Below, in pieces: positions 6,256 to 50,292 of a stretch of 64,000 nt of DNA; the first letter of the stretch is position 1, and each line of letters starts with the position of its first letter. Location: NCBI GenBank assembly GCA_014859835.1, contig JACZKW010000047.1, forward strand, positions 2,723 to 66,722, in the 5' to 3' direction. Source of the stretch: Thermoplasmata archaeon (lineage in GTDB: Archaea > Thermoplasmatota > Thermoplasmata > UBA10834). The notes below the pieces were generated by a model that worked only from the letters and a program-made list of their open reading frames with translations, did not search any database and had not been told where the DNA came from. The position numbers were made by a program, and so were the translations under genes.

Positions 6256-6302
6256 GTCAAAAGGCTTAACTACAGAGACAATCTTCCCAACATTCCGTCT
6301 GC

Positions 6303-6406: not shown

Positions 6407-6461
6407 TCCACCCTCGTTGTCCAAGTGACAACTCTAATATGTCAGCGAGTCAATCGGCTTT

Positions 6462-13672: not shown

Positions 13673-14386
13673 TTGTTTAGAGACTCGATACAAGGTCTGG
13701 AAAAGGTTTTCAAGAACGACATCGAGAGGCCCAAAGTCATACTCGTCACCGGCCCTCCAGGATCGATGAAGACGAGCTTCTGCTATTCTCTGATGTCGCA
13801 CTACCTGAGAGATAAGAACGAGTTCGGCCTCTACGCCACTCTCGAAGAGACGGTCGACAGTCACCTGAAGAACATGGAGAGCATGGGCGTGAAGCTCTCC
13901 GCGAAGATGCAGATATCGGATATGACCGACCTCAGGGAGATCGACCAGATCGACGAGGTCATCGGCGATTCGGCACAGACGGATTACGTGCTCTTCATAG
14001 AGAAGATGATACAGCGTTTCAGGAGGACTCATGGAGACAAGTTCTCGATATTCGTCCTCGACTCGCTGGGCGCGCTTTACTCTCTGATGGAGAACGCGGA
14101 GGACATGAGGAAGAAGATGTTCTATTTCTTCAAGATGCTAAGGGACAACAACCTCACATCATTCATAATCATGGAACGGTCGTTGACAGGTGAGTCGCAG
14201 CTTCTCGGAAACGAAGGCTTTCTCGCAGACGGCATCGTGATGCTGGGCCTTGACCGCCAGAGGGGTAAGCTGGTGAGATACCTCCAGGTTGAGAAGATGA
14301 GAGCTGCGGAGCACAGTATGGAGAAGCACGCCATCGAAGTCAACAACTCCGGGATGCAGGTGCTGGGCCCGTTGCTCAGCACTTGA
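13673..14386 (+). CDS. single-domain KaiC/RecA-superfamily ATPase (ArlH/FlaH-like size), degenerate P-loop
   Basis: SIQGLEKVF...VILVTGPPGSMKTSFCYSL, IFVLDSLGALYSL; Walker A reads GPPGSMKT (Gly before Lys replaced by Met). Confidence 0.7.
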   Translation: MFRDSIQGLEKVFKNDIERPKVILVTGPPGSMKTSFCYSLMSHYLRDKNEFGLYATLEETVDSHLKNMESMGVKLSAKMQISDMTDLREIDQIDEVIGDSAQTDYVLFIEKMIQRFRRTHGDKFSIFVLDSLGALYSLMENAEDMRKKMFYFFKMLRDNNLTSFIIMERSLTGESQLLGNEGFLADGIVMLGLDRQRGKLVRYLQVEKMRAAEHSMEKHAIEVNNSGMQVLGPLLST

Positions 14387-20549: not shown

Positions 20550-22304
20550 TCAGGTTCGCTGAGGAGGTCCGGTCTCTGCCAGTTTCGCCCGGACCTCTTT
20601 CATCACCTTGTCAGGATCCTTGTAATATGCAGATATGATGGTGGCAACCTTCCTGTGATTGTCGATGCTCATCTTCTTCATGTACTCGAGGATGTCGACA
20701 CGCCTCTTGATCTCCCTTTCCATCTCGCGAGGTGCCCAGTTTCTGGCCATTCTGACCTTCTCGTACACGTAGCTGTGACCGCTGTAGTTGAAAGTGTCAT
20801 CTGCTGGATTCCACGTGTAGACGGAGTTTGTGATCAGCTCATCGGTCTCGGGGTCGATGCCGACGATCTCCGTCAGTGACTTGACTCGTCTGGTCATCTT
20901 GGTCCCGACCTTGACCTGAGCCTGCAATAGCACGATATTGAGGGCGGTTATCAATGCCCTGGGCAGGTTGATGGGGTCGTTCTCCATCCTGTGAACCATC
21001 GCCTGGACATCCTCTGCATGGAAAGTGGAATAGCAGGTCTTGCCAGTTGCCATGGCCTGGAACACGACATACGCTTCCTTGCCTCTGACCTCACCGACCA
21101 TCAGATACTGAGGCCTCTGTCTCATGGCTGCCGTGAGCAAGTCGAACATGTCTATCTCACCGGAAGATCTTCCAGTGATCATGCTCTTCCCGCCGAAGCC
21201 TTCTCGGGTCAGACCCGGGACCCAGTTCTCATGTGGTAGGTTGAGCTCCCTGGTGTCCTCGATGGAGACGATCTTCATCTGCGGGGGGATGAAAAGGAGA
21301 ACGGCGTTCAAGGTCGTGGTCTTTCCACTCGCGGTACCTCCACACACGAGCATCGACTCTCCATGCTCGATGCCTATCCAGAGGTATGCCATCATCTCCG
21401 TGCTCATCGTCTTGAATTTGAGTAGGTCGAGCGGGGTGAAAGGATTCTCCTTGAACCGTCTGATTGTGAATGACGAACCCCTCTTCGTGACATGCTTCCC
21501 GAGGGTCGCCTGCAATCTGGAGCCGTCCGGGATCGTAGCGTCCAGAAGTGGGCTCGCAACCGAGATGTGCTTGCCGCACTTCTGGGCAAGCCATACAACG
21601 AAACCATCGAGTTCCACCTCCTTCTCGAACCTGAGATTGGACCTTATTGAGCCGTATTTCCTGTGATAGATGTACAGCGGGACGTCGACTCCATCGCACG
21701 AGCAGTCCTCTACATTGGGTTCGGCCATCATCACGTCGATGACGCCGTAGCCGAGGAAATCCCTGAGGAGATAGTACATCACCCTCTCCTTGGATACTGG
21801 ATGCAACGAGATGCCCAGCTGGTCCATGAGCTCCTCGATGATCCGTCTGAGGTACTTCTCCTTCTCGGAAGGTTCCTCCTCGGTCATCTTCTCGACAGAT
21901 GCGATGAGGGTCTCTTTCAGCAGAGCGAGCACAGCTGCCTCGTCCCCCAGCAGCTTAGGCTCGATCACCTCGTATGTGTACTCGTTGGCCTTGTTGTCGT
22001 ACCTTATCCTGACATATGAATAATTCTGTTTGACCGGGATCATCTCGACCTCGTCGATATTCGACTCGGTCAGCTTTGGTATCTCCGTGATCTGGCTGAT
22101 GTCGACCTTCACCTCGTTCTTGGTGATCGCGATCATCGCAGGTCTGGGCTTTATCTTCATAAGGAAACCGTAGTACGCTGCGAAAAAGCCTCCGCTCTTC
22201 GCCTTCTCCTCCTCTGGTGGGGGAGTCTCATCTGCTTCAGGCGCGTTTGGCTGCGGTTCTTCCGTTTCTATCTTGGCCTGCTCGGTTTCAGACATCTCAA
22301 TCAC
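20550..22304 (-). CDS. FlaI/TadA/VirB11-family secretion-pilus ATPase (paralogue B)
   Basis: LVCGGTASGKTTTLNAVLLFIPP Walker A, Asp/His boxes, FlaI-like N-domain; no archaellum accessory genes nearby. Confidence 0.85.
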   Translation of the reverse strand: MIEMSETEQAKIETEEPQPNAPEADETPPPEEEKAKSGGFFAAYYGFLMKIKPRPAMIAITKNEVKVDISQITEIPKLTESNIDEVEMIPVKQNYSYVRIRYDNKANEYTYEVIEPKLLGDEAAVLALLKETLIASVEKMTEEEPSEKEKYLRRIIEELMDQLGISLHPVSKERVMYYLLRDFLGYGVIDVMMAEPNVEDCSCDGVDVPLYIYHRKYGSIRSNLRFEKEVELDGFVVWLAQKCGKHISVASPLLDATIPDGSRLQATLGKHVTKRGSSFTIRRFKENPFTPLDLLKFKTMSTEMMAYLWIGIEHGESMLVCGGTASGKTTTLNAVLLFIPPQMKIVSIEDTRELNLPHENWVPGLTREGFGGKSMITGRSSGEIDMFDLLTAAMRQRPQYLMVGEVRGKEAYVVFQAMATGKTCYSTFHAEDVQAMVHRMENDPINLPRALITALNIVLLQAQVKVGTKMTRRVKSLTEIVGIDPETDELITNSVYTWNPADDTFNYSGHSYVYEKVRMARNWAPREMEREIKRRVDILEYMKKMSIDNHRKVATIISAYYKDPDKVMKEVRAKLAETGPPQRT

Positions 22305-23284
22305 GCAAACAGTATTCTGAGGGAAACAAATCCTGCGACCAACATGATGAAGCTGTGCCTCATCCCTATGGGTATGCTCCCCTTCTGGATGACACCAGCT
22401 AGCAGCCCATCCCCAACCGCATGCACCACTATCGCAAGTAGGAATATGAATGAGATATCGTCGATGAGGGCGACCTTGATGTTGACTCCCGGAATCTCCT
22501 GTAATCCCATATCCTGAGCCGCATCGTTCACCGTCGTTCCCGCCTCCTCCATCTTAGGGAGGAACTGCAGGTCGAGGATCAATATTGTCGCAATGAACAC
22601 GAAGAATGAAATGTAGACGACCATCACATAGGTCGACATGGTCACGTTCCTCTCCTCCTGTGTGAGGATGGATTCCTTGGCATCATGGGACACCATAGTG
22701 AGGACATCGGCGACGTTGCCACCCGCGTCGTTGGCCTTCCTGATTATCGATGTCATTCTTACGACCAGAGGTGTCTTGACCCTTTCCGAGAACAATCTGA
22801 TGGCCTCAGATGCGGGCACACCCCATTCTATCTGCGCAGCCATCTTCTTGATTTCCGGAGTCAATCGGCCATATCTGCCGGACGATGCGATGACGATCGA
22901 GTCCGCCAAAGTCATGCCGAACCTTCCGGCCTCCGCCACATCTCTGAGGAAATCGGGTAGTCTGGTCTCGATCTCCCTGATATGCTTCTCCTTCGCCGAT
23001 GTGTAGAATCCGTAGGGGGCAAGGAATGCCAATATCCCAAAGATGACGTAATCGATCGGTTCGAACGGGAGCGAAAGGCTGCCTATCCCATCTATGATCG
23101 CCAAGAACACGCATATGCCCACAGCGGCGAACGAACCTGCTAGGATGGTTCTAGTCTTATCGGACTTCTCAGTGGCAAGGATCTTCTTGATCGCCCTCTC
23201 CTGTTCTGCCTGACTGAGCTTCTTCGTTGCCATCCTACATCGCCCCTTCCTGTGACATGTTCCAAATGACAAATATGAATCCAA
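22301..23284 (-). CDS. FlaJ/TadC-like platform membrane protein (half-size, part B)
   Basis: 327 aa, polytopic, T2SSF-like cytoplasmic domain; overlaps neighbours by 4 and 50 bp. Confidence 0.65.
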   Translation of the reverse strand: MDSYLSFGTCHRKGRCRMATKKLSQAEQERAIKKILATEKSDKTRTILAGSFAAVGICVFLAIIDGIGSLSLPFEPIDYVIFGILAFLAPYGFYTSAKEKHIREIETRLPDFLRDVAEAGRFGMTLADSIVIASSGRYGRLTPEIKKMAAQIEWGVPASEAIRLFSERVKTPLVVRMTSIIRKANDAGGNVADVLTMVSHDAKESILTQEERNVTMSTYVMVVYISFFVFIATILILDLQFLPKMEEAGTTVNDAAQDMGLQEIPGVNIKVALIDDISFIFLLAIVVHAVGDGLLAGVIQKGSIPIGMRHSFIMLVAGFVSLRILFA

Positions 23285-24278
23285 ACTGCGAGATCGGGAT
23301 CATCCCCAGGACGATCAGGTACAGGAGCGTGACCATCATGTCGGAGTCACCTCCACCGACGATTGCCATGATCGCCATGATGAGAACAAGGAATAGGGGG
23401 AAAGCAACGACGACAGTGACGAAGGATTCGGCGAGCATGCCAAGTGTCTCCATCTGGGACTTCATGGCGAGCTTGTTCTCCTTCTGGTATTCATCCGCCT
23501 TGAGCAGGAAGTACGGCTTGAGTTGCCCACCTGATGTGGAAGTGGTGACGACACCCTGCAAGAACTCCTGGAACTTGGCCGAGGGTGACCTCTTCGAAGC
23601 CTTCTTGATGGCGGTCAGGATATCCGATCCCAGTAGTTCCGTGTCACGCGTGATCCACGAGGACTCCTCCGAGATCTCACCGTAGACCTTCTGCCTCGAG
23701 AGTTCCTTGAATATGACATCTATGTTGACATCCGCCGACGCCATGGCAGAGATGAAGCCCATCGCAGCCGCGATCCTCTTGTCGATATCCCTGCCCCTGG
23801 ACTTGGCCTTGGAGGCCGGTGATCCCATGAGCATCATGAACGCCATCATGGGTAACAGACCAATCGCTATGCCTGATATCATGATCCTAACCATTATCGA
23901 TACGCCGAGCACCCCGAAGAGGATGATGCCGACGACCACTGCTATGACCACTCCTATGGCGAATGCGATGATAGTGCTCATGAGTACATAGGCATAGTAT
24001 TCTTCGACCCGTATCCTCATATGGGCCTTGTTGAGTGATTCCTCAAGGGCCTGGTTGTTGGCGCTGGTCATCTTATCGCTCGCGAACTTGCCCATTATGC
24101 GCCAGGACAAATCCTGAAACTTGGTCAGGCTGACGTAGTCGGGGACGGCGCCCTTGGTCAATCGGACTCCATGAGGTCCGATGTCCTCCCCTCTCTGGGT
24201 CAGCTTCGTCTTGAGGTACTCTCCCTTCTTGGTCTCGACCCTCTCGAAGACATCGGAGACTTCAGGCAGAGTCGACAC
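23235..24278 (-). CDS. FlaJ/TadB-like platform membrane protein (half-size, part A)
   Basis: 347 aa, polytopic, T2SSF-like; 17-bp overlap with upstream ATPase. Confidence 0.65.
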   Translation of the reverse strand: MSTLPEVSDVFERVETKKGEYLKTKLTQRGEDIGPHGVRLTKGAVPDYVSLTKFQDLSWRIMGKFASDKMTSANNQALEESLNKAHMRIRVEEYYAYVLMSTIIAFAIGVVIAVVVGIILFGVLGVSIMVRIMISGIAIGLLPMMAFMMLMGSPASKAKSRGRDIDKRIAAAMGFISAMASADVNIDVIFKELSRQKVYGEISEESSWITRDTELLGSDILTAIKKASKRSPSAKFQEFLQGVVTTSTSGGQLKPYFLLKADEYQKENKLAMKSQMETLGMLAESFVTVVVAFPLFLVLIMAIMAIVGGGDSDMMVTLLYLIVLGMIPISQFGFIFVIWNMSQEGAM

Positions 24279-26022
24279 CTCCTGTCGGCATCTTCAAACC
24301 GCTCTGGGAGGCTGCCGGGTACATTTCCTTTCGAGCCATTTCCGCCACTCCCTTCGGGTCCTTGTAATATGATTTGATGATGTTCCAGATGTCCACATGG
24401 TCAGACATGTCCTTCGATACCATGTATTTCACGATATCCACACGGCGCTCGAATTCCTCCAGCAGTTCCTCGTGTGTCAGGTTCTTCATTTCCATGATCT
24501 TGTCAAACAGGAAACTGTGGCCCTTGAAGATGAACTTGTCCGTGGCCTGATCCCATTCGTAGACCGTGTTGCTGATGAGCTCGTTCGTTTCGGGTTCGAA
24601 ACCGACGATTTCGATGAGCTGCTTGATTCTCCTGACCATGTCCATTCCTACTCTTGCATGTGTCTGGATGATGACATTCCTGAGGGCAGTGAGCAGAATT
24701 CTGGGACAATTGATCGGTGGGTTCTCAAGCCTGTTGACCATGCCCTTGACAGAATCCGCGTGCATGGTCGAGAAGGTCGTGTGACCGGTCGCCATCGCTT
24801 GGAACATGGTGTAGGTCTCCTTTCCTCTCACCTCTCCGACGATGATATAGTTCGGCCTCTGTCTCAACGCGGCCCTGACGAGGTCGTACATATCTATCTC
24901 ACCCGCGGCCTTTCCGTCCGGCCCTCGCTCACCTGAGCCAGATCTTGTCGTGGCGGGAATCCAGTTCTCATGAGGTAGGTTGATCTCTCTTGTATCCTCC
25001 ATGGTGACGATTTTGGCACCAGGGGGTATGAATAGTGACATGGCGTTGAGCGTCGCCGTCTTTCCACTAGCCGTGCCTCCGGCTATGATGGCCGACTCTC
25101 CATGCTCCACACCGAGCCACAGATACGCGACTATCTCTGGTGATGCCGTGCCGTACTTGATCAGTTCGACCGGCGTGAACGGTTTCTCCTTGAATCGTCT
25201 GATTGTGAACGAGGCACCCCTCGTGGTCACTTCTCTCGCATAGGTCGCCTGGACTCTGTGCCCTTCCGGCGTAGTACCGTCTAGTATGGGGTTCGAGACG
25301 GAGAGCTGCTTCCCACATCTCTGGCCAAGCGATATGACGAACGAGTTGAGGTCATCCTCATCCTCGAACACGACATTGGTCTTGATGGATTCGAACTTGC
25401 TATGGAACAGGAACAGTGGGATGCCTACGCCATCGCAGGATACGTCTTCGACATGAGTGTCGCTAATCATTGCATCTATGGGACCATATCCGACGAAATC
25501 CCTCGTGATGAAGTACTTCACCTTGTCTTCCGAGATCGGTTCGAGTCTGATACCCCTCGACTTGATGTAGCTGTCCACGCTCCTCTCCAGGTAGGTCTTC
25601 TTGTTCATGTGGTCGAGCTTCGCCCACTCGTAATCGAGGATCATCTCGAAGGTGGCCTTGATCTTCTTCAACAACGCATCTTCGTCTTCGGTCAGCACCG
25701 GCTCGATCACGCTCATTATGTAATCGCTAGTGGCTGCGTTGTAAGTAACCCTCACATAGCTGAACGGATCAACCACTGGATAGAATGCCATCTCCTGGAT
25801 ATCAGGATCCGTTATGGGGGGGATCTCGGTGTACGGTGACCCCTTCCCGTCCTTCCACTGCTTCCTCCTAGCAGCTGCACCCTTCGCGGATTTGATTTTG
25901 ATGGGTTCGGATTTGAGCCTGCTCACAGCGTTGATGTATCCATGCCAGATGCGAGCGCCTATTGGCTGCTTAGGGACTTTAACGGGTATGTCATATTCAA
26001 TTTTCGCATCTGCCTCAGACAA
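24262..26022 (-). CDS. FlaI/TadA/VirB11-family secretion-pilus ATPase (paralogue A)
   Basis: IIAGGTASGKTATLNAMSLFIPP Walker A, GEVRGKE, His box; clearly paralogous to 20550..22304. Confidence 0.85.
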   Translation of the reverse strand: MSEADAKIEYDIPVKVPKQPIGARIWHGYINAVSRLKSEPIKIKSAKGAAARRKQWKDGKGSPYTEIPPITDPDIQEMAFYPVVDPFSYVRVTYNAATSDYIMSVIEPVLTEDEDALLKKIKATFEMILDYEWAKLDHMNKKTYLERSVDSYIKSRGIRLEPISEDKVKYFITRDFVGYGPIDAMISDTHVEDVSCDGVGIPLFLFHSKFESIKTNVVFEDEDDLNSFVISLGQRCGKQLSVSNPILDGTTPEGHRVQATYAREVTTRGASFTIRRFKEKPFTPVELIKYGTASPEIVAYLWLGVEHGESAIIAGGTASGKTATLNAMSLFIPPGAKIVTMEDTREINLPHENWIPATTRSGSGERGPDGKAAGEIDMYDLVRAALRQRPNYIIVGEVRGKETYTMFQAMATGHTTFSTMHADSVKGMVNRLENPPINCPRILLTALRNVIIQTHARVGMDMVRRIKQLIEIVGFEPETNELISNTVYEWDQATDKFIFKGHSFLFDKIMEMKNLTHEELLEEFERRVDIVKYMVSKDMSDHVDIWNIIKSYYKDPKGVAEMARKEMYPAASQSGLKMPTGGVDSA

Positions 26023-27928: not shown

Positions 27929-30310
27929 TCATCTTATGTGGTCAAGCGAGAACGATCCGATGTTCAGTCCGGATTTGGTGAAAGAGTATCTTATGAAGGC
28001 TCTTGACTGAACCTCGCAGATACCCTTCACCGATAGGAACATGTTCAGGTTCTCGAGTTTGAACTCGATCATGCCGTCCATGAGCGATCCGAGCATCTGG
28101 ATCTCCTGATCTCCATGGACGCCCTTCTCGATCGTGTACATCGAGACCGCCTTGTCTCTCTTCCTTCTGCCGGCGACTGGACTGAGGAATCTGAATGCTG
28201 TGTTCGGGTCCAGATACGCTATGAGTGTGGAGATCGATCTGAACGCCATCCTATAGTATTCGTGGTCTTTCTTGAACCCTTTGGCGGCCTTCTCCAGCGC
28301 CTTCTGGATCGATTCATAATCAGTTGGCGCCTCGACGTATTCAGTGTACGGGTCCTCGGTCTCGTCACCCATGCTCCGGGAATAAGTGTCCACGTATCTG
28401 ACGAGCCCCCTGCTCTCATATTCCTCGTATCCTGAGAGCACGAACATCATCTCGTTCCTGATCTCCTTAGGTGATTTCTCGGTGATGACCCATATCGCAG
28501 GGATGCCTTTCTTCAACCCCTCTGCGATGAATGAATTCATGAGTACTTCCTTGCCCGTGAAGGGCGGACCATAAATCAGCATGTTCGACCCGAAGGGCGC
28601 GCCGCCCAGAAGCAGATCATCGAGTCTGGTGGTCCCAGTCTTGACCTTCTCCTGCTTGAGTTCGATGAGCCTGTCCTGCTCCCTCTTCTCAATCTCATCT
28701 GTTATGAGCCCCTGCTCCCTCGCACGGAGTTCGTCCTCCTTCATCGAGAAGTACTTCTCCTTGTTCCTAATCTCCTCTTCCTTCTCGGTGATCTGCCCCT
28801 GCAACTCTTCGAGGCGTTGCTTCGTGGTTAATTCGTCAGTGTTCATGAGGCTGGCTTTCTGCTGGGAGGCCCTCTTCAGTTCCTCCTCCAGGAGCCTCTC
28901 CCTGAACATCAGGTCTTCCTCTCGGCGGATCATCTCCTGCTCTTTGTAGGCCAACGGTTCCTTGAGCTTCCTCGTCTCGTCGTCTCGTATCCTCAACTCT
29001 TCCTTCAGCTTCTCGATCTCTTGCTCTCTCAGAGCGAACGACCGCTCGAGGTTCTGGGCCTGTTCCAACCTCTTCATCAGCTCCGGGTCCAGCACGGAAC
29101 CCTTCATCTCTGATATCTTCGCTTTCTCTTCCAGATGCTTCATGTCGAATTCTGTCCGGGAGAGCTTCGCCTCCAATCCGTGTATCTGCTCGTTGAGCTC
29201 GCGTTCCTTGGCGGAGGACTCCTCCAGCTCCTTGATGCGTTCTTCACTGTCCGAAGGCCCTCTGCCATAGGACATTATGCCTTCCTGGAGCGTGTTCTCC
29301 TTGGCCTTGAGCTGTAACTCATAGGCATCGATCTGTGCCATCCTCTGCGATAGCTCGATCTCCTGGCGCTTGAGGGTCTGTGCATCCACTGGCATCTCGG
29401 CGATACCCTTCTCCGTCTTTTCCCTGAAATCCCTCAGTTGGCTCTCGAGCTCCATGACTTTCAGTTCGAGATCCTCCTTCCGGGCCATCTCGGACGCGAG
29501 CTTGTCCGCGAGGTTCTCCGCATCAGCTGGCGCCCCCTGTTGCTTCTTGATGAACTTGATGACTGCGATACTTCCGCGTTTGACGTTCTCCAGCTCCTCC
29601 TCCAGTTGTTTCCTGTGAACGCGCTCGGCCTCGACTTCGCTCTTCGTGTGGGCTAATTGTTCAAGGACGGCCTGAGGATTGAACCCATCCGTCTCGAACT
29701 GCTTCAGCGTCTGTCTCAGTGTTTCGCGGAGTTGTGTGATCTCCTCTCCGTGCTCGAGCATCTCCTCGGGCACGCTCTTCTTAGGTATGGAGGCGCTCTT
29801 GATCTTGGGCTCATCGAGCCATGACTCAAGCCCCTCCTCGGTGCCAGCGAGCCATTTGGCCAGTGAATCATCATGGGTGAGTCCCGGTTCGGTCGTGGCC
29901 ACCGCTTCCTTCTCCTCATGGTTCTCGCCAGAGATCCATGCGGACAGACCTTCGTCCTCCCCAGCCAGCCAATGGGCGAGTTCCTTGTTCTCAGGGTTCA
30001 CCTGCGATCGGGCACCCTTGAGTATCTTTGCGGCTAATTTGTCCCCAATGCCTTTGATCCCGGCCAGTTCGCCAAGGTCTGCATTCTGCAGGTCATTGAC
30101 ATTCCTATAGCCGGCTTTGAGCAATAAATGAGCCTTTGCCTCGCCGACTCCCGGGACCGACATAAGTCTCTCGACGTCCCCCTCGCCCGAAGGAGAATCC
30201 TCTACCAAGGGGGCAGCACAGTGCTCACAACTGCCCTCGGAAACGGAAGACTCCTGCCCGCAATTCGGACATAAGGCGTGTCGCTTTTCCGCGTCATCTT
30301 TTTTCGGCAT
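27929..30310 (-). CDS. zinc ribbon + helix-hairpin-helix + long coiled coil + C-terminal KaiC-like RecA-fold domain (degenerate Walker A)
   Basis: CPNCGQ...CEHCAAPL; HhH GVGEAKAHLLLKAGYRNVNDL...IKGIGDKLAAKI; ~400 aa E/K/R/L/Q heptad region; TRLDDLLLGGAPFGSNMLIYGPPFTGKEV (KaiC-like, Ser/Thr of P-loop replaced by Glu). Confidence 0.75.
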   Translation of the reverse strand: MPKKDDAEKRHALCPNCGQESSVSEGSCEHCAAPLVEDSPSGEGDVERLMSVPGVGEAKAHLLLKAGYRNVNDLQNADLGELAGIKGIGDKLAAKILKGARSQVNPENKELAHWLAGEDEGLSAWISGENHEEKEAVATTEPGLTHDDSLAKWLAGTEEGLESWLDEPKIKSASIPKKSVPEEMLEHGEEITQLRETLRQTLKQFETDGFNPQAVLEQLAHTKSEVEAERVHRKQLEEELENVKRGSIAVIKFIKKQQGAPADAENLADKLASEMARKEDLELKVMELESQLRDFREKTEKGIAEMPVDAQTLKRQEIELSQRMAQIDAYELQLKAKENTLQEGIMSYGRGPSDSEERIKELEESSAKERELNEQIHGLEAKLSRTEFDMKHLEEKAKISEMKGSVLDPELMKRLEQAQNLERSFALREQEIEKLKEELRIRDDETRKLKEPLAYKEQEMIRREEDLMFRERLLEEELKRASQQKASLMNTDELTTKQRLEELQGQITEKEEEIRNKEKYFSMKEDELRAREQGLITDEIEKREQDRLIELKQEKVKTGTTRLDDLLLGGAPFGSNMLIYGPPFTGKEVLMNSFIAEGLKKGIPAIWVITEKSPKEIRNEMMFVLSGYEEYESRGLVRYVDTYSRSMGDETEDPYTEYVEAPTDYESIQKALEKAAKGFKKDHEYYRMAFRSISTLIAYLDPNTAFRFLSPVAGRRKRDKAVSMYTIEKGVHGDQEIQMLGSLMDGMIEFKLENLNMFLSVKGICEVQSRAFIRYSFTKSGLNIGSFSLDHIR

Positions 30311-30627
30311 TCTTGTTCTCCTCTGAGCTTCGAATGGGTCGGACTTGTGAAATCAACTCTAGGGGTTATCATTAATCCCAATATAGCACGTTTTCCCATA
30401 ATGTGCCCCATGTAGTGCATTCGAGACTATGAATATGCTAAATAACCTGGTCTCCATATATATACTTGCTCGGCCCGTGTTCGGAGGCCAGTTATTCTGA
30501 ATTCATCTATCGGTTACTTCAGGCTAGACACATCGTATCGCGTGGTTATAGGTCGGTCCGTACCTCGCACTCCTCTATAGACTCGACCAAAAGGCCAATA
30601 ACCCACGCATTGATTCTTAGATGCAAA

Positions 30628-33039
30628 ATGACTGGAGACAGGGGTACGAAGGACAAGAAGGAACGGATCGGAGTCTATGTGTGTCACTGTGGCACTAATA
30701 TAGGTGGCACGGTGGACTGCAAGCTGGTGACGGACTATGCCGGCACTCTGGATGATGTAGTGGTCAGTAGGGATAACATCTACACATGCTCCGAGCCGGG
30801 CCAGAATCAGATAGCCGAAGATATCAAGAAACATGGTCTCACGAAGGTCGTTGTCGCATCATGCTCTCCGAAGATGCACGAGAAGACCTTCAGGAAGACC
30901 CTCCAGGACGCAGGTCTGAACCCGTACGTCCTTGAGGTGATCAACCTGAGGGAACAATGCTCATGGGTGCACAAGGACAAAGCAGAGGCGACCAAGAAGG
31001 CCAAGGACCTCGTGCGCGGCGGCGTGTCTCGTGCGGCCCACCTGGAAGGTCTCAATCCCAAAGAGATTGAGCTCTCCAAGGATGTGCTTGTCATCGGCGG
31101 CGGGATCGCGGGGATATCATCCGCCCTCCAGCTGGCAAATTCTGGATATCAGGTCCATCTGATCGAACGGAACCCGAGCATTGGTGGGAGGATGGCTCAG
31201 CTCAGCAAGACCTTCCCCACCCTCGACTGTGCTCCGTGCATCCTCAGCCCGAGAATGGTCGACATTGCATCGCATCCGAGGATTGCGCTGTACACAAGGT
31301 CTGAGGTCATATCCGTATCCGGTTCTCCAGGCAACTATTCCGTACGAGTGAGGGTGGCGCCGAGGGGCGTAGATCTAAAGAAATGCATCGGGTGCGCGAA
31401 GTGCGAGAAGGTGTGCCCGGTGAAGGTCCCCGACGAATTCGAGGAAGGATTGTACGAGCGCAAAGCGATCTACAAACCGTTCCCGCAGGCAGTCCCTGCG
31501 GCTTACGTGGTCGATTTCGACAACTGTAAGGAGTGCGGAGCATGCGAGAAGGTCTGCTCCGCCCATGCGATAGATCTGGATGAGAAGGAGCGATTCGAGG
31601 ACCTCGAGGTAGGTGCGGTCGTGATCGCAACGGGCTTCGACCTCTTCGATGTCAGGAAGCTCGGAGAATACGACACGTCGATTCCCGATGTCATCACAGC
31701 GACCCAGATGGAGCGGCTGATGATCAACGAGTGCGGAGCTGGGATGGTCCTCAAACGCAAGACCGATGGCAACAGGGTGAAGAAGGTCGCCCTCGTACTA
31801 TGTGCAGGTTCGCGGACGCGCAAGGTAGGCATGCCATATTGCAGCAAGATATGCTGCAACTATGCGATCAAGCAGGCCGTGATTCTCAGGAAGACCTTCC
31901 CATACATGCAGGTTTACATCTACTATATAGACATCCGATCGGCTGGCCGCGGGTTCGAGGAGTTCTATGTCCGCTCACAGGAGGAATTCAATGTCAAGTA
32001 CATGCACGGCCGTGTTTCCGACATCCAGAAGGGTAAGAACGGCATCATGGTCCGAGCGGAGGATGTCACTCTCGGAGAGGTCATAGAGAACGAATTCGAC
32101 ATGGTCGTCCTATGCACCTCGATGATGCCTTCGGAAGGGACTGACACACTGGCGCGCACACTCAAGGTACCTCTCGGGGAAGACGGGTTTGTATCAGAGA
32201 AGCATCCAAAGCTCGACCCTGTGTCCTCGCACCGGTCAGGCATTTTCGCTGCGGGTGCGATTCTGGGGCCAAAAGACGTTCGGGACAGTGTCGTGGATGG
32301 GAGGAGCGCCGCTGCCCATGTGATCGAGTTCCTCGGGTCCGGGAAGATGCTGCTCGACCCAGTCAAAGCTCTGATTGTGGATGCGAGCAGGTGCATTCAG
32401 TGTGGGGCATGTGAGTTAATCTGTCCTGTACATGCGATAACCGTCAGCGACATGCCTCTGATCGATCAGATCGCATGCATCGGTTGTGGCGCCTGCGTAT
32501 CCGAGTGTCCTACACATGTGTTCGATCTCGCGCACTACACTGACGCGCAGGTCGATGCCGAAGTCCGCGGCCTTTTGGCAGAACCGTCAGAAGATGTGAG
32601 GATAGTCGGCTTCTTCGGTGACATCCTGGCATACGTCGCAGCCGACTCGGCCGGTACTGCACGCATGGAATATCCGACCACCTTGAGAATTCTTAGGGTG
32701 CCTTCTGCAGCCAGAGTTGCGCGGAGGGAGATACTGTTGACATTCGCAAACGGTGCGGACGGCGTCATGCTGTCCGATGAGGAAGGGGGCGAGGTGGCGG
32801 AGATCGTCGAGCGCCGCGTGAAGGCGCTCATCCCAGAATTGGACCAGCTTGGGATTGGCAAGGAACGCCTAACCTTCGTCCCGATGCTCCTGCCGATCTA
32901 CAAGGTCCTGCCGAAGTTCGTGGACACTTTCGACAAGAAGATCAAGCAGCTGGGCCGACTTTCGAAAGAGGCGAGGAAGAACGCTCTCGAAGCCGCAGAA
33001 GAGCAATATAATCCCGTGTTCAAGAAGCGCCCTGAATAG
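30628..33039 (+). CDS. hdrA: heterodisulfide reductase subunit A-like flavoprotein fused to MvhD-like domain
   Basis: VYVCHCGTNIGG, FAD-binding VLVIGGGIAGISSALQLA, 4Fe-4S ferredoxin motifs CKECGACEKVC/CIQCGACELICP/CIGCGACVSECP, C-terminal MvhD-like region; start moved to ATG 30628 (MTGDRG...). Confidence 0.8.
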   Translation: MTGDRGTKDKKERIGVYVCHCGTNIGGTVDCKLVTDYAGTLDDVVVSRDNIYTCSEPGQNQIAEDIKKHGLTKVVVASCSPKMHEKTFRKTLQDAGLNPYVLEVINLREQCSWVHKDKAEATKKAKDLVRGGVSRAAHLEGLNPKEIELSKDVLVIGGGIAGISSALQLANSGYQVHLIERNPSIGGRMAQLSKTFPTLDCAPCILSPRMVDIASHPRIALYTRSEVISVSGSPGNYSVRVRVAPRGVDLKKCIGCAKCEKVCPVKVPDEFEEGLYERKAIYKPFPQAVPAAYVVDFDNCKECGACEKVCSAHAIDLDEKERFEDLEVGAVVIATGFDLFDVRKLGEYDTSIPDVITATQMERLMINECGAGMVLKRKTDGNRVKKVALVLCAGSRTRKVGMPYCSKICCNYAIKQAVILRKTFPYMQVYIYYIDIRSAGRGFEEFYVRSQEEFNVKYMHGRVSDIQKGKNGIMVRAEDVTLGEVIENEFDMVVLCTSMMPSEGTDTLARTLKVPLGEDGFVSEKHPKLDPVSSHRSGIFAAGAILGPKDVRDSVVDGRSAAAHVIEFLGSGKMLLDPVKALIVDASRCIQCGACELICPVHAITVSDMPLIDQIACIGCGACVSECPTHVFDLAHYTDAQVDAEVRGLLAEPSEDVRIVGFFGDILAYVAADSAGTARMEYPTTLRILRVPSAARVARREILLTFANGADGVMLSDEEGGEVAEIVERRVKALIPELDQLGIGKERLTFVPMLLPIYKVLPKFVDTFDKKIKQLGRLSKEARKNALEAAEEQYNPVFKKRPE

Positions 33040-40065: not shown

Positions 40066-41448
<1,383 letters not shown>

Positions 41449-41839
41449 TCTCGTCTACCAGGGTTCTGCAATCCGTGCTCGCGAGAGCTCGATCATACTT
41501 TTGATGTCGATAGCGGAAGCCTGCCTCCGAATTCGAGAGAATTCGAAATTCATATGAACACTATATTGGTGCAAGAGTGGGCAATCGTCATTTATCAAAG
41601 TCATATTCGCGACATACAATCTATATATTGCAAGAAGAATGGGCATAATGATAATCATGGGATTGGGCACTTTCCCGTGACGCAACCAGCCACTCCCGAG
41701 GTCGTTTGTCCTTATCGAAGGATGGAAACGCTGACCAAGTGGAATGGCCAACCTGCGCTGTCGAATCGAGGTGATCTATGTGAATGCGAAAGACAGAACG
41801 ACCATTGGATCGAACAATGGCTCCTGTGGGAATGATGGA

Positions 41840-43093
41840 ATGCATGCTGGAACGAATTCTGTTGGCTCAGGGAGTCCTCGTCTCGGGGAAGTGCGCATCG
41901 TCGACACCACTTGCCGCGACGGAGAGCAGATGCCAGGAGTCGCATTCACAGGTGATGACAAGTTGATGATCGCCGGCGGGTTGCAGCAGATAGGGGTTGA
42001 ACAGATCGAGACATTCGCGACCTACAACGACAGCGACAGGAAATGCGCGAAGCAGCTCCGGGCACAGATGGGAAGCATATCGATAATGGGCTGGAACAGG
42101 CTCGTCAAGACCGATATCTCCGATTCCATCGGCCACGATGTCGATGCGGTCTCCATATCTACAGATACTTCCGACATCTCGCTATCGACAAAGCTCAAGA
42201 TCACCAGGGAGCAACAGCTCTCTCGTCTGGTCGATTGCATCGAGTTCGCGAAGGGTCATGGAGTATACGTCTGCTTCAATGCTGGAGATGCTACGAGGAC
42301 GGATCTGAGTTATCTCATCGAATTTGCAGAGACTGGGCTGGATGCGGGTGCCGATCGGTTCAGAATATGCGATACAATCGGCATCCTAACACCTTCGACT
42401 TCAGCAAGGCTCGTCCATTCTCTCATGTCACGTGTTGATATCGATTTGGAATTCCACGCTCACAATGATTTCGGACTCGCCGTCGCAAATGCACTCTCCG
42501 CATGCGAGGCTGCTTCAGCCTTTGATGGTCGTCGGATATGGATATCGACGACGATCAATGGTCTGGGTGAGCGTGCGGGGAATGTCCCACTCGAGGTGCT
42601 GGTGATGAACCTGAGAACACATTATGGCCTAGCGAAGTACAACGCGGAACACATAGTGCCTCTTTGCAGGAGCGTCGAGCACGCCAGCGGTCTCCGCATC
42701 CCACTGAACTATCCGATCGTGGGTGGAAACATGTTCACCCACAAGTCCGGGATACACGTCGATGGCATTCTGAAAGACCCTCACCTCTACGAGGCATTCG
42801 ATCCATCCATCCTCGGCGTCTCGAGACAAATCGTCATAGGCAAGCACTCTGGCAGTGCGTCCATCAAACACAAGCTTAAGCTGCTTGAGCTGGACGCTTC
42901 AGCTGATGCAGTGGAACGGATTCGGATAGAGGTCAATCGAGTAGGGGAGCTCAAGAAGGACAATCTTTCTGATTCCGAGCTGATTGCGATTTACAGAAGC
43001 ATCGTGGAGGATGGCGCGTTCAGGGACTCTACCCACGCCGACATTGAGAAGCGGATTTCCGCAGTCGATGCTAACATCGAGTGGAAACACTGA
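41840..43093 (+). CDS. LeuA/CimA/NifV-family 2-oxoacid:acetyl-CoA condensing enzyme, short form without regulatory domain
   Basis: VRIVDTTCRDGEQ, HAHNDFGLAVANAL; ~417 aa lacking the LeuA C-terminal regulatory domain. Confidence 0.8.
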   Translation: MHAGTNSVGSGSPRLGEVRIVDTTCRDGEQMPGVAFTGDDKLMIAGGLQQIGVEQIETFATYNDSDRKCAKQLRAQMGSISIMGWNRLVKTDISDSIGHDVDAVSISTDTSDISLSTKLKITREQQLSRLVDCIEFAKGHGVYVCFNAGDATRTDLSYLIEFAETGLDAGADRFRICDTIGILTPSTSARLVHSLMSRVDIDLEFHAHNDFGLAVANALSACEAASAFDGRRIWISTTINGLGERAGNVPLEVLVMNLRTHYGLAKYNAEHIVPLCRSVEHASGLRIPLNYPIVGGNMFTHKSGIHVDGILKDPHLYEAFDPSILGVSRQIVIGKHSGSASIKHKLKLLELDASADAVERIRIEVNRVGELKKDNLSDSELIAIYRSIVEDGAFRDSTHADIEKRISAVDANIEWKH

Positions 43094-43110
43094 CAGGAGT
43101 ATGATGACGC

Positions 43111-44367
43111 ATGGGGAAGACCATCGCTGAAAAGGTACTGTCATCTCATTCTGGGTCGGATTGCCGTCCGGGGGATATAGTGGTCGCGGATGTCGACTTC
43201 TGCATGTCCCAGGACGGGACCTCGTCGATGATGATGAGTGAACTCCATTCGATGGGGTTCGTTTCTCCGAAAACGAAGCGCGGAATGGCCATGGTGATAG
43301 ATCACAATTCACCATGCCCATCAGCGGATGTCTCTGTGATCCACAAAGCCATCCGTAGCTTTGCGGATTCTCATTCAATCCCTCTGCATGATGTCGGGGA
43401 GGGAGTCTGTCACCAGGTCGTTTTGGAGCAGGGGAAGGTGCTCCCGGGGGACCTCGTGATCGGGGCGGATTCTCACACATGCACCTACGGTGCATTGAAC
43501 GCCTGCTCCACTGGGCTCGGGTCAGCCGATGTTGCCGCGGCTGCTTACACTGGCAAACTCTGGTTCAAGGTCCCTGAAACAATGGTCCTTCGAGTGGATG
43601 GAGACTTCGGTCTGATGGTCGGGGCAAAGGATCTCATACTTACCATAATCGGGAAACTCACAGCAGATGGTGCGACGTACAAATCTCTCGAGTTCAAAGG
43701 TACCGCAATAGATTCCATGTGCATGGACAGCAGGATGACCGTCGCTAATATGGTGGTTGAGATGGGGGCCAAGTTCTGTCCGTTCGAGTTCGACTCTACC
43801 ACCGCCAAATGGTTCTCCGAACGGGGTATCCACGCAGAACACGGTCTGTCTTGTGATCCCGATGCACGAGTCGAGAGCGAGATGGATTTCTGCACAGACG
43901 ACATCGTCCCCATGGTTGCGAGACCGCACAGTGTGGATAATGTGTGCCCAGCATCCGAACTCGCAGATGTCCTCGTGCACCAGGTCTTCATCGGCACCTG
44001 CACGAATGGGAGATTGGGTGATCTAGAGGCTGCGGCGCGAATTCTGAAGGGCAGGACCGTGAAGAGGGGGATGCGACTGATCATCGCCCCTGCCTCGAGA
44101 GCGATATTGTTGGATGCCATCGATGCCGGCATCATGCATCAATTGATCAAATCAGGCGCTGTCGTGGTCTCTCCGGGATGTGGGCCTTGTGTCGGCACAC
44201 ATGCTGGCGTACCATCGGATGACGAAACGGTCCTATCTACCGCGAACAGGAACTTCAAAGGACGGATGGGCAACAACAAAGGTGTCAATATCTATCTCTC
44301 TTCTCCGGAGACCGCCGCGGCGACCGCAATCAGAGGTACGATAACGGATCCCAGGGAGGTGATGTAG
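43111..44367 (+). CDS. leuC: 3-isopropylmalate dehydratase / homoaconitase-type large subunit
   Basis: aconitase-family large subunit, Cys ligands (CTNGRL, GCGPCVG). Confidence 0.85.
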   Translation: MGKTIAEKVLSSHSGSDCRPGDIVVADVDFCMSQDGTSSMMMSELHSMGFVSPKTKRGMAMVIDHNSPCPSADVSVIHKAIRSFADSHSIPLHDVGEGVCHQVVLEQGKVLPGDLVIGADSHTCTYGALNACSTGLGSADVAAAAYTGKLWFKVPETMVLRVDGDFGLMVGAKDLILTIIGKLTADGATYKSLEFKGTAIDSMCMDSRMTVANMVVEMGAKFCPFEFDSTTAKWFSERGIHAEHGLSCDPDARVESEMDFCTDDIVPMVARPHSVDNVCPASELADVLVHQVFIGTCTNGRLGDLEAAARILKGRTVKRGMRLIIAPASRAILLDAIDAGIMHQLIKSGAVVVSPGCGPCVGTHAGVPSDDETVLSTANRNFKGRMGNNKGVNIYLSSPETAAATAIRGTITDPREVM

Positions 44368-44892
44368 TTGACGATTCTTCGCGGGCGAGTGCATAGGTTC
44401 GATCCGAACGACAACATCAACACCGACTACATCATCTCGGGGAGATACAAGTTCAAGATAGACGACATCCAGAAGCTGGCCGAGCATGTGATGGAAGACA
44501 TCGACCCTGATTTCGCGAGCAGGATCGAGAAAGGCGACATCATCGTGGCAGGTCGCAATTTCGGATGCGGTTCGAGCCGAGAACAGGCTCCCAGAGCTCT
44601 CAAGGCTGCCGGAGTGTCCGTGATCATAGCAGAGTCTTTCGCACGCATATTCTACAGGAGCGCGTTCAACATCGGTCTTCCTCTGTTGACATGCGAAACT
44701 GGTTGGGTGCGCAGTGGTGACATGATCGAGGTAGACCTGTCGAAAGGCGAGGTTCGCCGGGGATCGACTGGCACAGTCATGTCCACTTCCAGAATCCCGC
44801 AGGTCATGCAGATTCTGTTGTCCGATGGCGGTCTCACGTCTCACATAATGAAACACAATGGTTTCTCATTGGAGACGGATAAGATGGAGTGA
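44368..44892 (+). CDS. leuD: 3-isopropylmalate dehydratase / homoaconitase-type small subunit
   Basis: aconitase swivel domain; TTG start abutting leuC stop. Confidence 0.8.
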
Positions 44893-44898
44893 TGATGA

Positions 44899-46071
44899 AT
44901 GCCTTCTGAGGACAGGGAACTGCTCGTGCCATTCATCCCAGGTGATGGGATCGGTCCAGATATCACAATAGCTGCCCAGACCGTGATCGAAGCGGCCATC
45001 AACAAGGCCACCGACAATCGGGTCAGGGTCAAGTGGGAACATCTAATGGCTGGACAGGAATCCTTCGATATTACTGGCGAATGGCTGCCTCGCGCGACAA
45101 TAGACAGGATAAAAGCGGTCGGAATCGCGATCAAAGGTCCACTGACGACGCCTGTGGGCGGGGGAATAAGGAGCCTGAACGTCGTCCTCAGGCAAGTGTT
45201 AGATCTCTATTCATCTGTCCGGCCGGTTCGTCACTTCCGCGGGGTTCCTAGCCCTGTTAAGAATCCCGAGAAGATGAACATGGTGATATTCCGTGAGAAC
45301 ACGGAGGACGTTTACAAGGGTCTGGAGTGGAAGCGCGGCTCAGAGGAAATTGGCAGATTGAGGCAGTTCCTCCGATCTGACCTGGGCGTAGATATCTCTG
45401 AGGATTCCGGCCTCGGTCTCAAACCTATATCTGAATTCGCCTCGAAGAGGCTGATCCGAGCAGCCATGGTGCATGGTATCCGACATCATAGGAAGTCGGT
45501 AACGCTCGTCCACAAGGGGAATATAATGAAGTACACTGAAGGGGCCTTCCGCGACTGGGGATACGAACTCGCGAGGGACGAATTCTCGGACGTGACGATA
45601 TTCGAAGGAAAAGACGGAGATGCCACAGATATCGATGGCAAGATTCTGTTGAACGACCGGATAGCGGACAACATGTTCCAACAGATACTGACTCGGCCAG
45701 ATGAGTACTCCGTGCTGGCCGCCCCGAACCTCAACGGTGACTATCTCGCCGACGCGTGTGCCGCCCAAGTCGGGGGTCTGGGGTTCGCTCCAGGCGCGAA
45801 CATCGGCGATGGTGTCGCAGTGTTCGAACCTGTCCACGGGACGGCGCCCAAGTATGCAGGGAAGGACATTGCGAACCCAAGCGCTCTGATTCTCTCCGGC
45901 GCGATGATGCTGGATCATATCGGATTTGCAGAAGCTGCCAGGTCGATAGAAAAAGCTCTTGAGATGACAATATCCGATGGGTTTGTGACCTGGGACGTGG
46001 CGCGGCAGATTGGATCAAGCAGCTATGTTGGCACGAGGAAGTACGCCGCGGAAATCGTTGCGAGGATATGA
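44899..46071 (+). CDS. icd: isocitrate dehydrogenase-type beta-decarboxylating dehydrogenase (bacterial NADP-Icd-like)
   Basis: GDGIGPDIT, AIKGPLTTPVGGGIRSLNVVLRQVLDLYSSVRPVRHFRGVPSPVKNPEKMNMVIFRENTEDVY closely parallels bacterial Icd including the Ser of the IRSLN substrate loop. Confidence 0.75.
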   Translation: MPSEDRELLVPFIPGDGIGPDITIAAQTVIEAAINKATDNRVRVKWEHLMAGQESFDITGEWLPRATIDRIKAVGIAIKGPLTTPVGGGIRSLNVVLRQVLDLYSSVRPVRHFRGVPSPVKNPEKMNMVIFRENTEDVYKGLEWKRGSEEIGRLRQFLRSDLGVDISEDSGLGLKPISEFASKRLIRAAMVHGIRHHRKSVTLVHKGNIMKYTEGAFRDWGYELARDEFSDVTIFEGKDGDATDIDGKILLNDRIADNMFQQILTRPDEYSVLAAPNLNGDYLADACAAQVGGLGFAPGANIGDGVAVFEPVHGTAPKYAGKDIANPSALILSGAMMLDHIGFAEAARSIEKALEMTISDGFVTWDVARQIGSSSYVGTRKYAAEIVARI

Positions 46072-50195: not shown

Positions 50196-50292
50196 TGGGC
50201 CCGATCGGATTTGAACCGATGACCAACTGGTCTCTCAGGGAATTTTTATTCCCGTATGAGCCAATCGCTCCGCCGGACTAAGCTACGGGCCC
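50196..50292 (-). tRNA. tRNA-Met (CAU) with ~23-nt canonical intron after position 37; CCA not encoded
   Basis: GGGCCCG-TA-GCTT..GAGC-G-ATTGG-CTCATA[CGGGAATAAAAATTCCCTGAGAG]A-CCAGT-TGGTC-ATCGG-TTCAAAT-CCGAT-CGGGCCC-A. Confidence 0.8.

Follow-up and report, generated by a model that had tools for sequence, protein, structure and literature searches.

A 64,000-nucleotide stretch of a Thermoplasmata archaeon genome (contig JACZKW010000047.1, positions 2,723 to 66,722; hereafter "the window") carries, at ~41.7-46.1 kb, four co-directional open reading frames (ORFs) on the + strand that encode a condensing enzyme of the LeuA/homocitrate-synthase family, a LeuC-like and a LeuD-like dehydratase subunit, and an isocitrate dehydrogenase (Icd). 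With a probability of about 0.8, we read these genes as an operon for a LeuA-family (Re-type) citrate synthase, a LeuCD-type aconitase, and an NADP-dependent isocitrate dehydrogenase (NADP-IDH), which would together lead from oxaloacetate and acetyl-CoA to 2-oxoglutarate. In this scheme, the synthase would join acetyl-CoA and oxaloacetate to form citrate, the heterodimeric [4Fe-4S] LeuC/LeuD-type hydro-lyase would convert citrate into isocitrate via cis-aconitate, and the NADP-IDH would yield 2-oxoglutarate by oxidative decarboxylation, for glutamate and nitrogen assimilation. The operon would represent the oxidative "left branch" of the tricarboxylic acid (TCA) cycle in its host. This reading starts from the gene content, packing, conservation, protein families, and active-site residues of the locus and from a gene order shared with Firmicutes; from these observations we infer the substrates of the synthase and dehydratase, the stereochemistry, and the physiological role. 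The dehydrogenase gene is tightly packed behind those of the dehydratase and synthase, so that isocitrate is the likely intermediate of the operon. Re-face stereochemistry is assumed because, to our knowledge, every characterised citrate synthase of the LeuA/homocitrate-synthase superfamily is Re-specific.

The four genes form one operon with an inferred promoter of its own. The synthase gene (41780..43093, + strand, 437 residues) is followed by the genes of the two candidate aconitase subunits, the large one of the LeuC/HacA type (43111..44367, +, 418 residues) and the small one of the LeuD/HacB type (44368..44892, +, 174 residues, TTG start), both of the aconitase superfamily, and by the gene of a type I homodimeric prokaryotic NADP-IDH (44899..46071, +, 390 residues). 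A first-pass annotation of the window had described these genes as contiguous with gaps of 17, 0, and 6 bp, and all four ORFs and the gaps were confirmed: 17 bp at 43094-43110, none between the leuC stop (44365-44367) and the TTG at 44368, and 6 bp at 44893-44898. Each gene is preceded by a Shine-Dalgarno-like sequence, that of leuD being GGAGGTGAT at 44355-44363. The synthase start was first placed at ATG 41840, which is possible, and the longest ORF opens at ATG 41744, a codon that reads GTA in the related locus L004. GTG 41780 is more likely than either, because this codon is ATG in two relatives (L004 and L039), because the Shine-Dalgarno-like GAGGTGATC (41768-41776) ends 3 nt before it, and because it yields the 437-residue product of the NCBI call (P0001, from "Thermoplasmata archaeon" metagenome-assembled genomes, MAGs), to which the synthase is 100% identical.

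Judged from its sequence, the dehydrogenase is unambiguously a genuine NADP-IDH. With 514.2 bits, it clears the cut-off (490) of NF005425, the NCBIfam equivalog model for NADP-IDH, and it stays slightly under that of TIGR00183 (547.8 versus 567.3 bits). It scores 126 bits with the LeuB model (cut-off 353), 189 bits with AksF_Meth (cut-off 500), and 216 bits with AksF2_Meth (cut-off 540), and falls far under the NCBIfam models for tartrate dehydrogenase and for iso/homoisocitrate dehydrogenase. Its top PDB matches are the IDHs from A. fulgidus (504 bits), B. subtilis (446 bits), and E. coli (419 bits), versus 173 bits or less for homoisocitrate and isopropylmalate dehydrogenase structures. The Icd-specific loop GGGIRSLNV, already pointed out in the first-pass annotation, is located at residues 87-95 (nt 45157-45183). 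The isocitrate residues S113, N115, R119, R129, R153, Y160, K230', D283', D307, and D311 (E. coli numbering, the E. coli sequence being verified against PDB 1AI2) are identical in the window enzyme and in 30-31 orthologues. The NADP determinants R292', K344, Y345, and R395 are kept in the window enzyme; the first three are kept in the 30-31 orthologues, and R395 is an arginine in 23/31. At two further positions the window enzyme differs from that of E. coli (V351 to A and Y391 to W). The view that this enzyme tracks NADP-Icd and not LeuB is upheld by the model scores and by the conservation of substrate and cofactor residues.

The dehydratase subunits are classified less finely by profile models. 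LeuC passes only NCBIfam subfamily models (PRK00402.1 with 508 bits, IPMI_arch, and hacA_fam) and LeuD only the LEUD_arch subfamily; neither reaches an NCBIfam equivalog model, whether LEU2/leud or HacA/HacB. The scores are 395 bits with HacA_Meth (cut-off 550) for LeuC, and 187 bits with HacB2_Meth and 148 bits with HacB_Meth (cut-off 230 for both) for LeuD. An alignment with pig mitochondrial aconitase (sequence verified against PDB 5ACN and 1B0K) shows that the three cysteine cluster ligands and the catalytic residues D100, H101, H147, D165, S166, H167, N258, E262, N446, R447, and R452 are conserved in LeuC and its orthologues, a set that is common to the entire superfamily and hence necessary and not discriminating.

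Two specificity features are more informative. The window LeuC and its ~40 Thermoplasmata orthologues all have a glutamine, within the motif M(A/S)QDGT, in the column of aconitase Q72, as do pig aconitase and the fused operon aconitases of C. difficile and Peptacetobacter; the residue is a histidine in the methanogen isopropylmalate/citramalate isomerase MJ0499 and in homoaconitase MJ1003, the comparison comprising these two His-type and few Gln-type reference enzymes. The specificity loop of LeuD, YKF(K/R), belongs to a stretch ending in (K/R/S)I that is found in all orthologues and is nearly invariant across the clade. Its second lysine (K30) aligns with Arg26 of homoaconitase MJ1271 in both HMMER and MAFFT alignments, the position being a valine in the isopropylmalate isomerase (IPMI) MJ1277; it is an arginine in two of the Thermoplasmata loci (L006 and L029) and a serine in two others (L019 and L021). 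The loops compare as YKFK in the window LeuD, YLVY in IPMI, and YLRT in homoaconitase. The basic residue points to a substrate that bears a distal carboxylate, such as aconitate or homoaconitate, and excludes a hydrophobic one of the isopropylmalate type. The equivalent loop of pig aconitase reads LKFR580, a likeness to YKFK that is suggestive only, MAFFT having misplaced the domain-4 loop of aconitase against LeuD. Taken with the adjacent IDH, the aconitase-type glutamine and the basic loop, which bear out the specificity residues looked for in the first-pass annotation, favour an aconitase function of the LeuCD-like pair.

The synthase is composed of the Pfam domains HMGL-like (PF00682, 197 bits) and HCS_D2 (PF22617, 74 bits) only; the LeuA_dimer regulatory domain (PF08502) was not found by Pfam, in keeping with its reported absence. 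The protein stays below every NCBIfam cut-off, the top model being a 2-isopropylmalate synthase subfamily (380 bits, cut-off 517). Among reference enzymes, it is closest to the clade of HM1_2993, Teth514_0415, and the C. difficile "AksA" (42-44% identity, 280-285 bits), followed by methanogen AksA (36-41%, 237-269 bits), NifV (36%, 203 bits), LeuA (169 bits), the Re-citrate synthase (Re-CS) of Dehalococcoides (29%, 151 bits), and those of C. kluyveri and Syntrophus (28%, 104-106 bits). The Re-CS reference sequences are those of Table S1 of PMC12016533, at text-recognition quality with small errors possible, and the methanogen AksA references are database matches P0121-P0240, named by NCBI, JGI, or UniRef. 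The top solved structure is the Sulfolobus homocitrate synthase 6KTQ (246 bits). Searched against 1.84 billion cluster representatives, the synthase family appears as one isolated 50% cluster (653 bits), the next match scoring 318 bits. In neighbour-joining bootstrap trees, this family lies outside the clades of AksA (100%), NifV (82%), LeuA, and CimA, and groups into an archaeal clade with a sister group from three other Thermoplasmata MAGs, L040, L041, and L042 (100%), joined by P0361 and a Lokiarchaeia protein (70%; this node is also given as P0361 + P0383). The trees, of the kind called for in the first-pass annotation, set the family apart from these four clades, but its link to bacterial Re-CS is without bootstrap support.

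The substrate pocket was mapped on T. thermophilus homocitrate synthase (TtHCS, sequence verified against 2ZTJ) at positions 70, 72, 92, 94, 96, 131, 133, 135, 137, 164, and 193. The ligands of the metal and the 2-oxoacid (TtHCS R12, E/D13, T166, H195, and H197) are R, D, T, H, and H, invariant in 119/119 family members, and the synthase carries the SGIH histidine within FTHKSGIH. Over the eleven pocket positions, the window family reads MWSSDYCNGCE (119/119), its L040-42 sister group MWASAYCNECE, HM1_2993 MWASSYSNECE, the 119 methanogen AksA sequences LLIFAFASEA(G/A/S), NifV TWACPY-GESE, and TtHCS VHDLGERSEAE. The window synthase is identical to HM1_2993 at 7/11 positions (M70, W72, S94, Y131, N135, C164, and E193), the four differences being S, D, C, and G at 92, 96, 133, and 137, and to methanogen AksA at 0/11; L72, I92, F94, A133, S135, and A164 of AksA, invariant in 119/119 methanogen orthologues, are W, S, S, C, N, and C in the window. 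Asn135 is rare, being present in 7/150 of the nearest 50%-identity cluster representatives, among them the cluster of the family itself, its nearest neighbours, and the Firmicutes type. At the level of these residues, the pocket resembles that of the HM1_2993 Re-citrate synthase and not those of AksA, NifV, LeuA, or CimA. In TtHCS, H72, R133, and S135 are the residues that we take to bind the C5 carboxylate of 2-oxoglutarate; they are W, C, and N in the window. The combination of W, C or S, and N, as opposed to Gly135 of NifV, would make the pocket about one methylene shorter, which would suit oxaloacetate.

Database names do not reflect this assignment. P0001, P0063, and P0091 of the synthase family, together with the Methanothermococcus AksA orthologues P0147 and P0150, are named "homoaconitate hydratase" by NCBI, and JGI names relatives of the synthase "homocitrate synthase NifV". 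Both the NCBI and the JGI names are systematically wrong and keep the pathway out of sight in metabolic reconstructions.

A route from a LeuA-family Re-CS via aconitase and IDH to 2-oxoglutarate is documented in anaerobes that lack the usual citrate synthase, including clostridia, Dehalococcoides, Syntrophus, Heliomicrobium, and others (PMC12016533, PMC4720418, PMC3971608, PMC8027424). In Heliomicrobium, deletion of HM1_2993 abolished growth on acetate, which its authors regard as confirming a Re-citrate synthase (PMC12016533). For Archaea, PMC12016533 cites a single case, an activity in Ignicoccus, and our literature search found no paper connecting Re-citrate synthase with Thermoplasmata. 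The closest comparison is with the HM1_2993-type synthases of Firmicutes (Heliomicrobium modesticaldum HM1_2993, Thermoanaerobacter Teth514_0415, and the C. difficile "AksA"), which have the same domain architecture as the window synthase. In C. difficile (L083) and Peptacetobacter (L084/85), the synthase gene is followed by that of a fused 641-residue aconitase and then by an Iso_dh gene, and in a Bacillota MAG (L087) by that of a 633-residue aconitase. The Peptostreptococcaceae operon therefore has the same synthase-aconitase-Iso_dh order as the window, although its components differ in several respects. The Firmicutes aconitase is a single 633-641-residue fusion and that of the window is split into LeuC- and LeuD-like subunits; the Firmicutes operon IDH is a short 330-residue type without K344/Y345, whereas that of the window is a 390-residue NADP type; and the window synthase belongs to a separate archaeal clade (with L040-42, P0361, and the Lokiarchaeia protein), with a glycine in place of the xAED glutamate and a family-specific Asp96.

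Dehalococcoides mccartyi offers a second parallel, as a strict anaerobe with an incomplete TCA cycle, a LeuA-family Re-CS (CAI83711/cbdbA1708), and two-subunit aconitase genes next to an NADP-IDH (PMC4720418). Its "aconitase large subunit" and "small subunit" genes lie directly 5' of the experimentally validated NADP-IDH DET0450 (PMC4720418 supplement). However, the synthase is not listed in this operon, which continues with malate dehydrogenase and fumarase (PMC4720418), and the Dehalococcoides Re-CS, 29% identical to the window synthase, has E131, V133, and V135 in its pocket. The Re-CS of C. kluyveri (CKL_0973) and S. aciditrophicus (SYN_02536), biochemically proven to be Re-specific, share with the window synthase the LeuA/homocitrate-synthase superfamily and W72, but they are only 28% identical, longer, form a separate deep clade, and have R133/H135. 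By sequence, they are functional analogues within the superfamily and not orthologues. Methanogen AksA, HacAB, and AksF and the isomerase MJ0499/MJ1277 share the three enzyme superfamilies and the archaeal split LeuC/LeuD. The window dehydratase subunits show 40-50% similarity to the methanogen ones (342 bits with the structure of MJ0499 and 310 bits with that of MJ1003); the differences are those of pocket (0/11), glutamine instead of histidine, YKFK instead of YLRT or YLVY, and an IDH instead of an isopropylmalate-dehydrogenase-like enzyme.

The arrangement is conserved well beyond the window. A scan of loci with the synthase, using one genome per species, returned ~40 Thermoplasmata loci, and the order eno-syn-leuC-leuD-icd-(nhe, on the minus strand)-trxR is kept in ~33 of them (species-level MAGs) at 60-98% protein identity; with this recurrence, chance is not a plausible explanation of the gene order. 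In 28 loci, the median gaps within the four-gene block are 14, 3, and 6 nt. In the window itself, the 5' neighbour is an enolase gene (40075-41448, +), 330 bp away, and the 3' neighbour is a convergent Na+/H+ exchanger gene, 6 bp past the icd stop, with a thioredoxin-reductase-like gene further on. The synthase genes of L040-42, 52-56% identical to the window family, are without adjacent LeuCD-like or Icd genes, and the operon is therefore specific to one sublineage. An apparently truncated operon in L043 (CP070736.1) proved to be an artefact, this sequence being masked by 100-nt runs of N every ~2.6 kb, one of them within the synthase gene; the locus was set aside as unusable.

The operon is present in all four available members of the order UBA10834, namely UBA9653 (L008), RBG_13_57_23 (L026), RBG_19FT_COMBO_56_21 (L032), and UBA10834 (L044). 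Zinke et al. described this order as non-methanogenic and encoding Wood-Ljungdahl/acetyl-CoA synthase (ACS) genes; in its operon-bearing MAGs, mcr and most markers of methanogenesis are missing (bioRxiv 10.1101/2020.03.09.984617). An anabolic branch fed by acetyl-CoA would fit such hosts. An HdrA-MvhD-like fusion, ThiC, and nitroreductases, likewise encoded in the window, agree with an anaerobic lifestyle. The host of the window is probably an anaerobic, non-methanogenic Thermoplasmata archaeon of the order UBA10834 or near it. Citrate synthase (gltA), AcnA/B, LeuB, and mcr genes were not found in the 64-kb window; lack of a Si-citrate synthase is usual, though not obligatory, in hosts of a Re-citrate synthase.

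Related synthases were also observed outside the Thermoplasmata. In a Lokiarchaeia MAG (L086, JBGVSQ010000067.1, 1741-7185), an N135-type homologue (P0512) is without aconitase or IDH neighbours and lies ~2.7 kb from a divergently oriented gene of the CitMHS citrate transporter family. In a Candidatus Micrarchaeota MAG (L049, 3345-10335), a synthase with 40% identity lies near a LeuC gene with a glutamine at the Q72 position and a LeuD gene with the loop GKYRTL. The dehydrogenase of this locus has S113/N115, and D/I at the NADP positions 344/345; the locus may thus encode this pathway in an NAD-type form, in a member of the DPANN archaea.

Several points weigh against the citrate-synthase reading. 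The synthase is just 42-44% identical to a validated Re-CS, and methanogen AksA scores nearly as high (237-269 versus 280-285 bits). The neighbour-joining node that joins the family to the Firmicutes Re-CS is unsupported, with deep nodes at 27-66% bootstrap; since these nodes do not resolve, orthology to bacterial Re-CS is not claimed. The proven Re-CS of C. kluyveri/Syntrophus and of Dehalococcoides have other pockets, so that there is no universal Re-CS signature and the pocket match is not diagnostic of activity. On the side of the dehydratase, a basic residue in the LeuD loop is equally required by homoaconitase, and we know of no LeuCD-type two-subunit aconitase that has been biochemically characterised. 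Finally, the glutamate of the xAED motif (TtHCS E137) is a glycine in 119/119 family members, within F-N-A-G-D-A-T-R. We take E137 to be the proposed general-base partner, corresponding to E155 of yeast homocitrate synthase and to E218 of M. tuberculosis isopropylmalate synthase; a glycine at this position could imply an altered chemistry.

The glycine is accompanied by a second family-specific residue. Position 96 is an aspartate in 118/119 family members (STDTSD), two residues past the strand-4 pocket residue and on the neighbouring strand. It is an alanine in L040-42, and a proline, serine, alanine, or glycine in 144/150 of the nearest representatives. The sister group L040-42 keeps the canonical Ala/Glu at 96/137, and among the 150 representatives the pair Gly137 + Asp96 occurs in the window family only. 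Position 137 is not itself invariant (E in 111, Q in 21, and other residues in 18 of the 150); an initial view of Gly137 as the loss of an essential catalytic residue was toned down accordingly, 39/150 relatives having a non-Glu residue there. For the same reason, Asp96 as a relocated catalytic carboxylate is advanced here as a hypothesis and not as a finding.

Rival readings of the operon invoke the same superfamilies with other substrates. The first-pass annotation had named two candidates, the Re-citrate-synthase route and a coenzyme-B-type chain elongation, in which AksA, the AksD/E homoaconitase, and AksF would extend 2-oxoglutarate to 2-oxosuberate. The former is supported by the Icd residues, the dehydratase glutamine and loop, the HM1_2993-like pocket, and the Firmicutes gene order. 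The elongation set gains some credit from the synthase scores with methanogen AksA (237-269 bits, 36-41% identity), from HacB2_Meth being the top equivalog-type match of LeuD (187 bits), from the basic residue at the position of homoaconitase Arg26, and from the kinship of the lineage with the methanogenic Methanomassiliicoccales. We nevertheless consider it very improbable. The pocket agrees at 0/11 positions with AksA, whose 119 sequences all read LL-IF-A-FAS-E-A; LeuD and LeuC remain under the HacB and HacA equivalog cut-offs (187<230 and 395<550); LeuC has a glutamine where homoaconitase MJ1003 has a histidine, and the LeuD loop is YKFK and not YLRT. The dehydrogenase, with 189-216 bits for AksF cut-offs of 500-540, passes the NADP-IDH model instead and retains S113/N115, the residues that recognise the short gamma-carboxylate of isocitrate. 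The UBA10834-order MAGs with the operon are without mcr and most methanogenesis markers, so that no requirement for coenzyme B is known in them. Still less probable are the initial three reactions of lysine biosynthesis via alpha-aminoadipate, as found in Thermus, Sulfolobus, and Pyrococcus. The synthase is short, without a regulatory domain, and finds its top structural match in a Sulfolobus homocitrate synthase (6KTQ, 246 bits), but the TtHCS ligands of the C5 carboxylate, H72, R133, and S135, are replaced by W, C, and N, and the dehydrogenase is a type I IDH (504 bits) and not an isopropylmalate-dehydrogenase-like homoisocitrate dehydrogenase (173 bits). Furthermore, neither the window nor the syntenic loci have lysW/X/Y/Z/J/K genes beside the operon, which is flanked by those of enolase, the Na+/H+ exchanger, and the thioredoxin-reductase-like protein.

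A leucine or isoleucine pathway, made of LeuA or CimA, LeuCD, and LeuB with an unusual dehydrogenase, is the least probable of these readings, even though the top NCBIfam model of the synthase is a 2-isopropylmalate synthase subfamily (380 bits, cut-off 517) and both LeuC and LeuD pass generic archaeal IPMI subfamily models. It would leave unexplained a synthase without the LeuA_dimer domain and with a pocket unlike that of LeuA or CimA, a charged YKFK loop where IPMI has YLVY, and a dehydrogenase that reaches 126 bits with the LeuB model (cut-off 353) and has the IDH-specific S113/N115. A different kind of rival accepts the enzymes and reverses their direction: 2-oxoglutarate would be carboxylated and citrate cleaved by a reversible synthase, in a carbon fixation resembling a reversed oxidative TCA cycle. 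Both IDH and aconitase work in either direction, reversible forms of Si-type citrate synthase are well known, and the hosts are anaerobes with reported Wood-Ljungdahl genes and, in the window, HdrA/MvhD-type genes. Yet we know of no evidence that a LeuA-family citrate synthase is reversible in vivo. An organism with a Wood-Ljungdahl pathway already produces acetyl-CoA, and neither in the window nor in the syntenic loci is a gene for a 2-oxoglutarate:ferredoxin oxidoreductase or for succinyl-CoA linked to the operon. Re-CS has also been treated as the only irreversible step (PMC12016533). We give this reversal as slim a chance as the coenzyme B set.

The oxidative citrate-synthase reading can be extended to a broader and more tentative proposal, which we hold to be possible though somewhat doubtful. 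The operon would then be the first Re-type citrate synthase pathway described at the gene level in Archaea; the synthase lineage, comprising the order UBA10834, relatives in other Thermoplasmata, and Lokiarchaeia, would have lost the xAED glutamate and gained a unique aspartate, possibly a relocated carboxylate; and the LeuCD-derived enzyme would be the cell's only aconitase.

Upstream of the operon, a conserved DNA element (41591..41675, +) was found. In the window, an intact dyad GTC-N8-GAC at 41600-41613 is followed by an A/T-rich box with the core CATAATGATAAT (41644-41655). This core has a single exact copy in the 64 kb, looser matches being at chance level. Over 32 orthologous loci, the consensus is aGTC-N8-GACA-N14/15-GTCC-N8-GACACAATGATAAT, then an A/T-rich stretch. 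The element can be described as two GTC-N8-GAC dyads ~30 nt apart, followed by CA(C/T)AATGATAAT and the A/T-rich box; in the subclade to which the window belongs, the second dyad is degenerate. The element lies ~125-190 nt 5' of the start codon and is conserved in these 32 loci at the DNA level, though the proteins are only 60-70% identical. It is probably the operon's own promoter together with an operator for a dimeric regulator.

Other features of the window were recorded as side observations. In an ORF of up to 794 residues (4027-6411, -), an ATPase domain of the bacterial DnaA type (PF00308, 172 bits) occurs together with DUF835, which is unusual in an archaeon; the real start of the ORF is probably further downstream, since its 5' end overlaps a tRNA gene on the opposite strand (6301-6401). 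This tRNA gene (+) and a second one at 50196-50292 (-) are ~100 nt long and presumably intron-containing; these two of the four tRNA genes in the window were detected by Rfam and not by ARAGORN. An 857-residue fusion of an HdrA-like flavoprotein and an MvhD/FlpD domain, with several 4Fe-4S motifs, is encoded at 30466-33039 (+), in line with reports of heterodisulfide-reductase-like genes in non-methanogenic relatives of Methanomassiliicoccales. Three double zinc-ribbon (DZR) proteins are encoded at 2302-4011, 14506-15513, and 15612-20414 (+), one of them 1600 residues long with a CARDB domain. The DZR genes adjoin those of KaiC-like ATPases (13673-14386 and 27929-30310) and a set of type IV pilus/archaellum-like ATPase and membrane genes (20550-26022).

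The operon does not define a new pathway; most likely it encodes a known bacterial one, which would be new to this archaeal lineage and goes under wrong names in databases. Its lineage-specific traits are the split candidate aconitase with its glutamine and YKFK loop, the Gly/Asp swap in the synthase, and the conserved putative operator. Uncultured Thermoplasmata and other anaerobes are commonly reported to have incomplete TCA cycles, a result of the other names given to their Re-citrate synthases and LeuCD-type aconitases. Asn135 of the synthase and Gln72 together with YKF(K/R) of the dehydratase are candidate annotation markers. If the broader proposal made above holds, LeuCD-type proteins with this glutamine and loop could be re-annotated as aconitases across many "TCA-incomplete" anaerobes. 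Recognition of the operon itself would close the route to 2-oxoglutarate and glutamate in a widespread archaeal order of soils and sediments.

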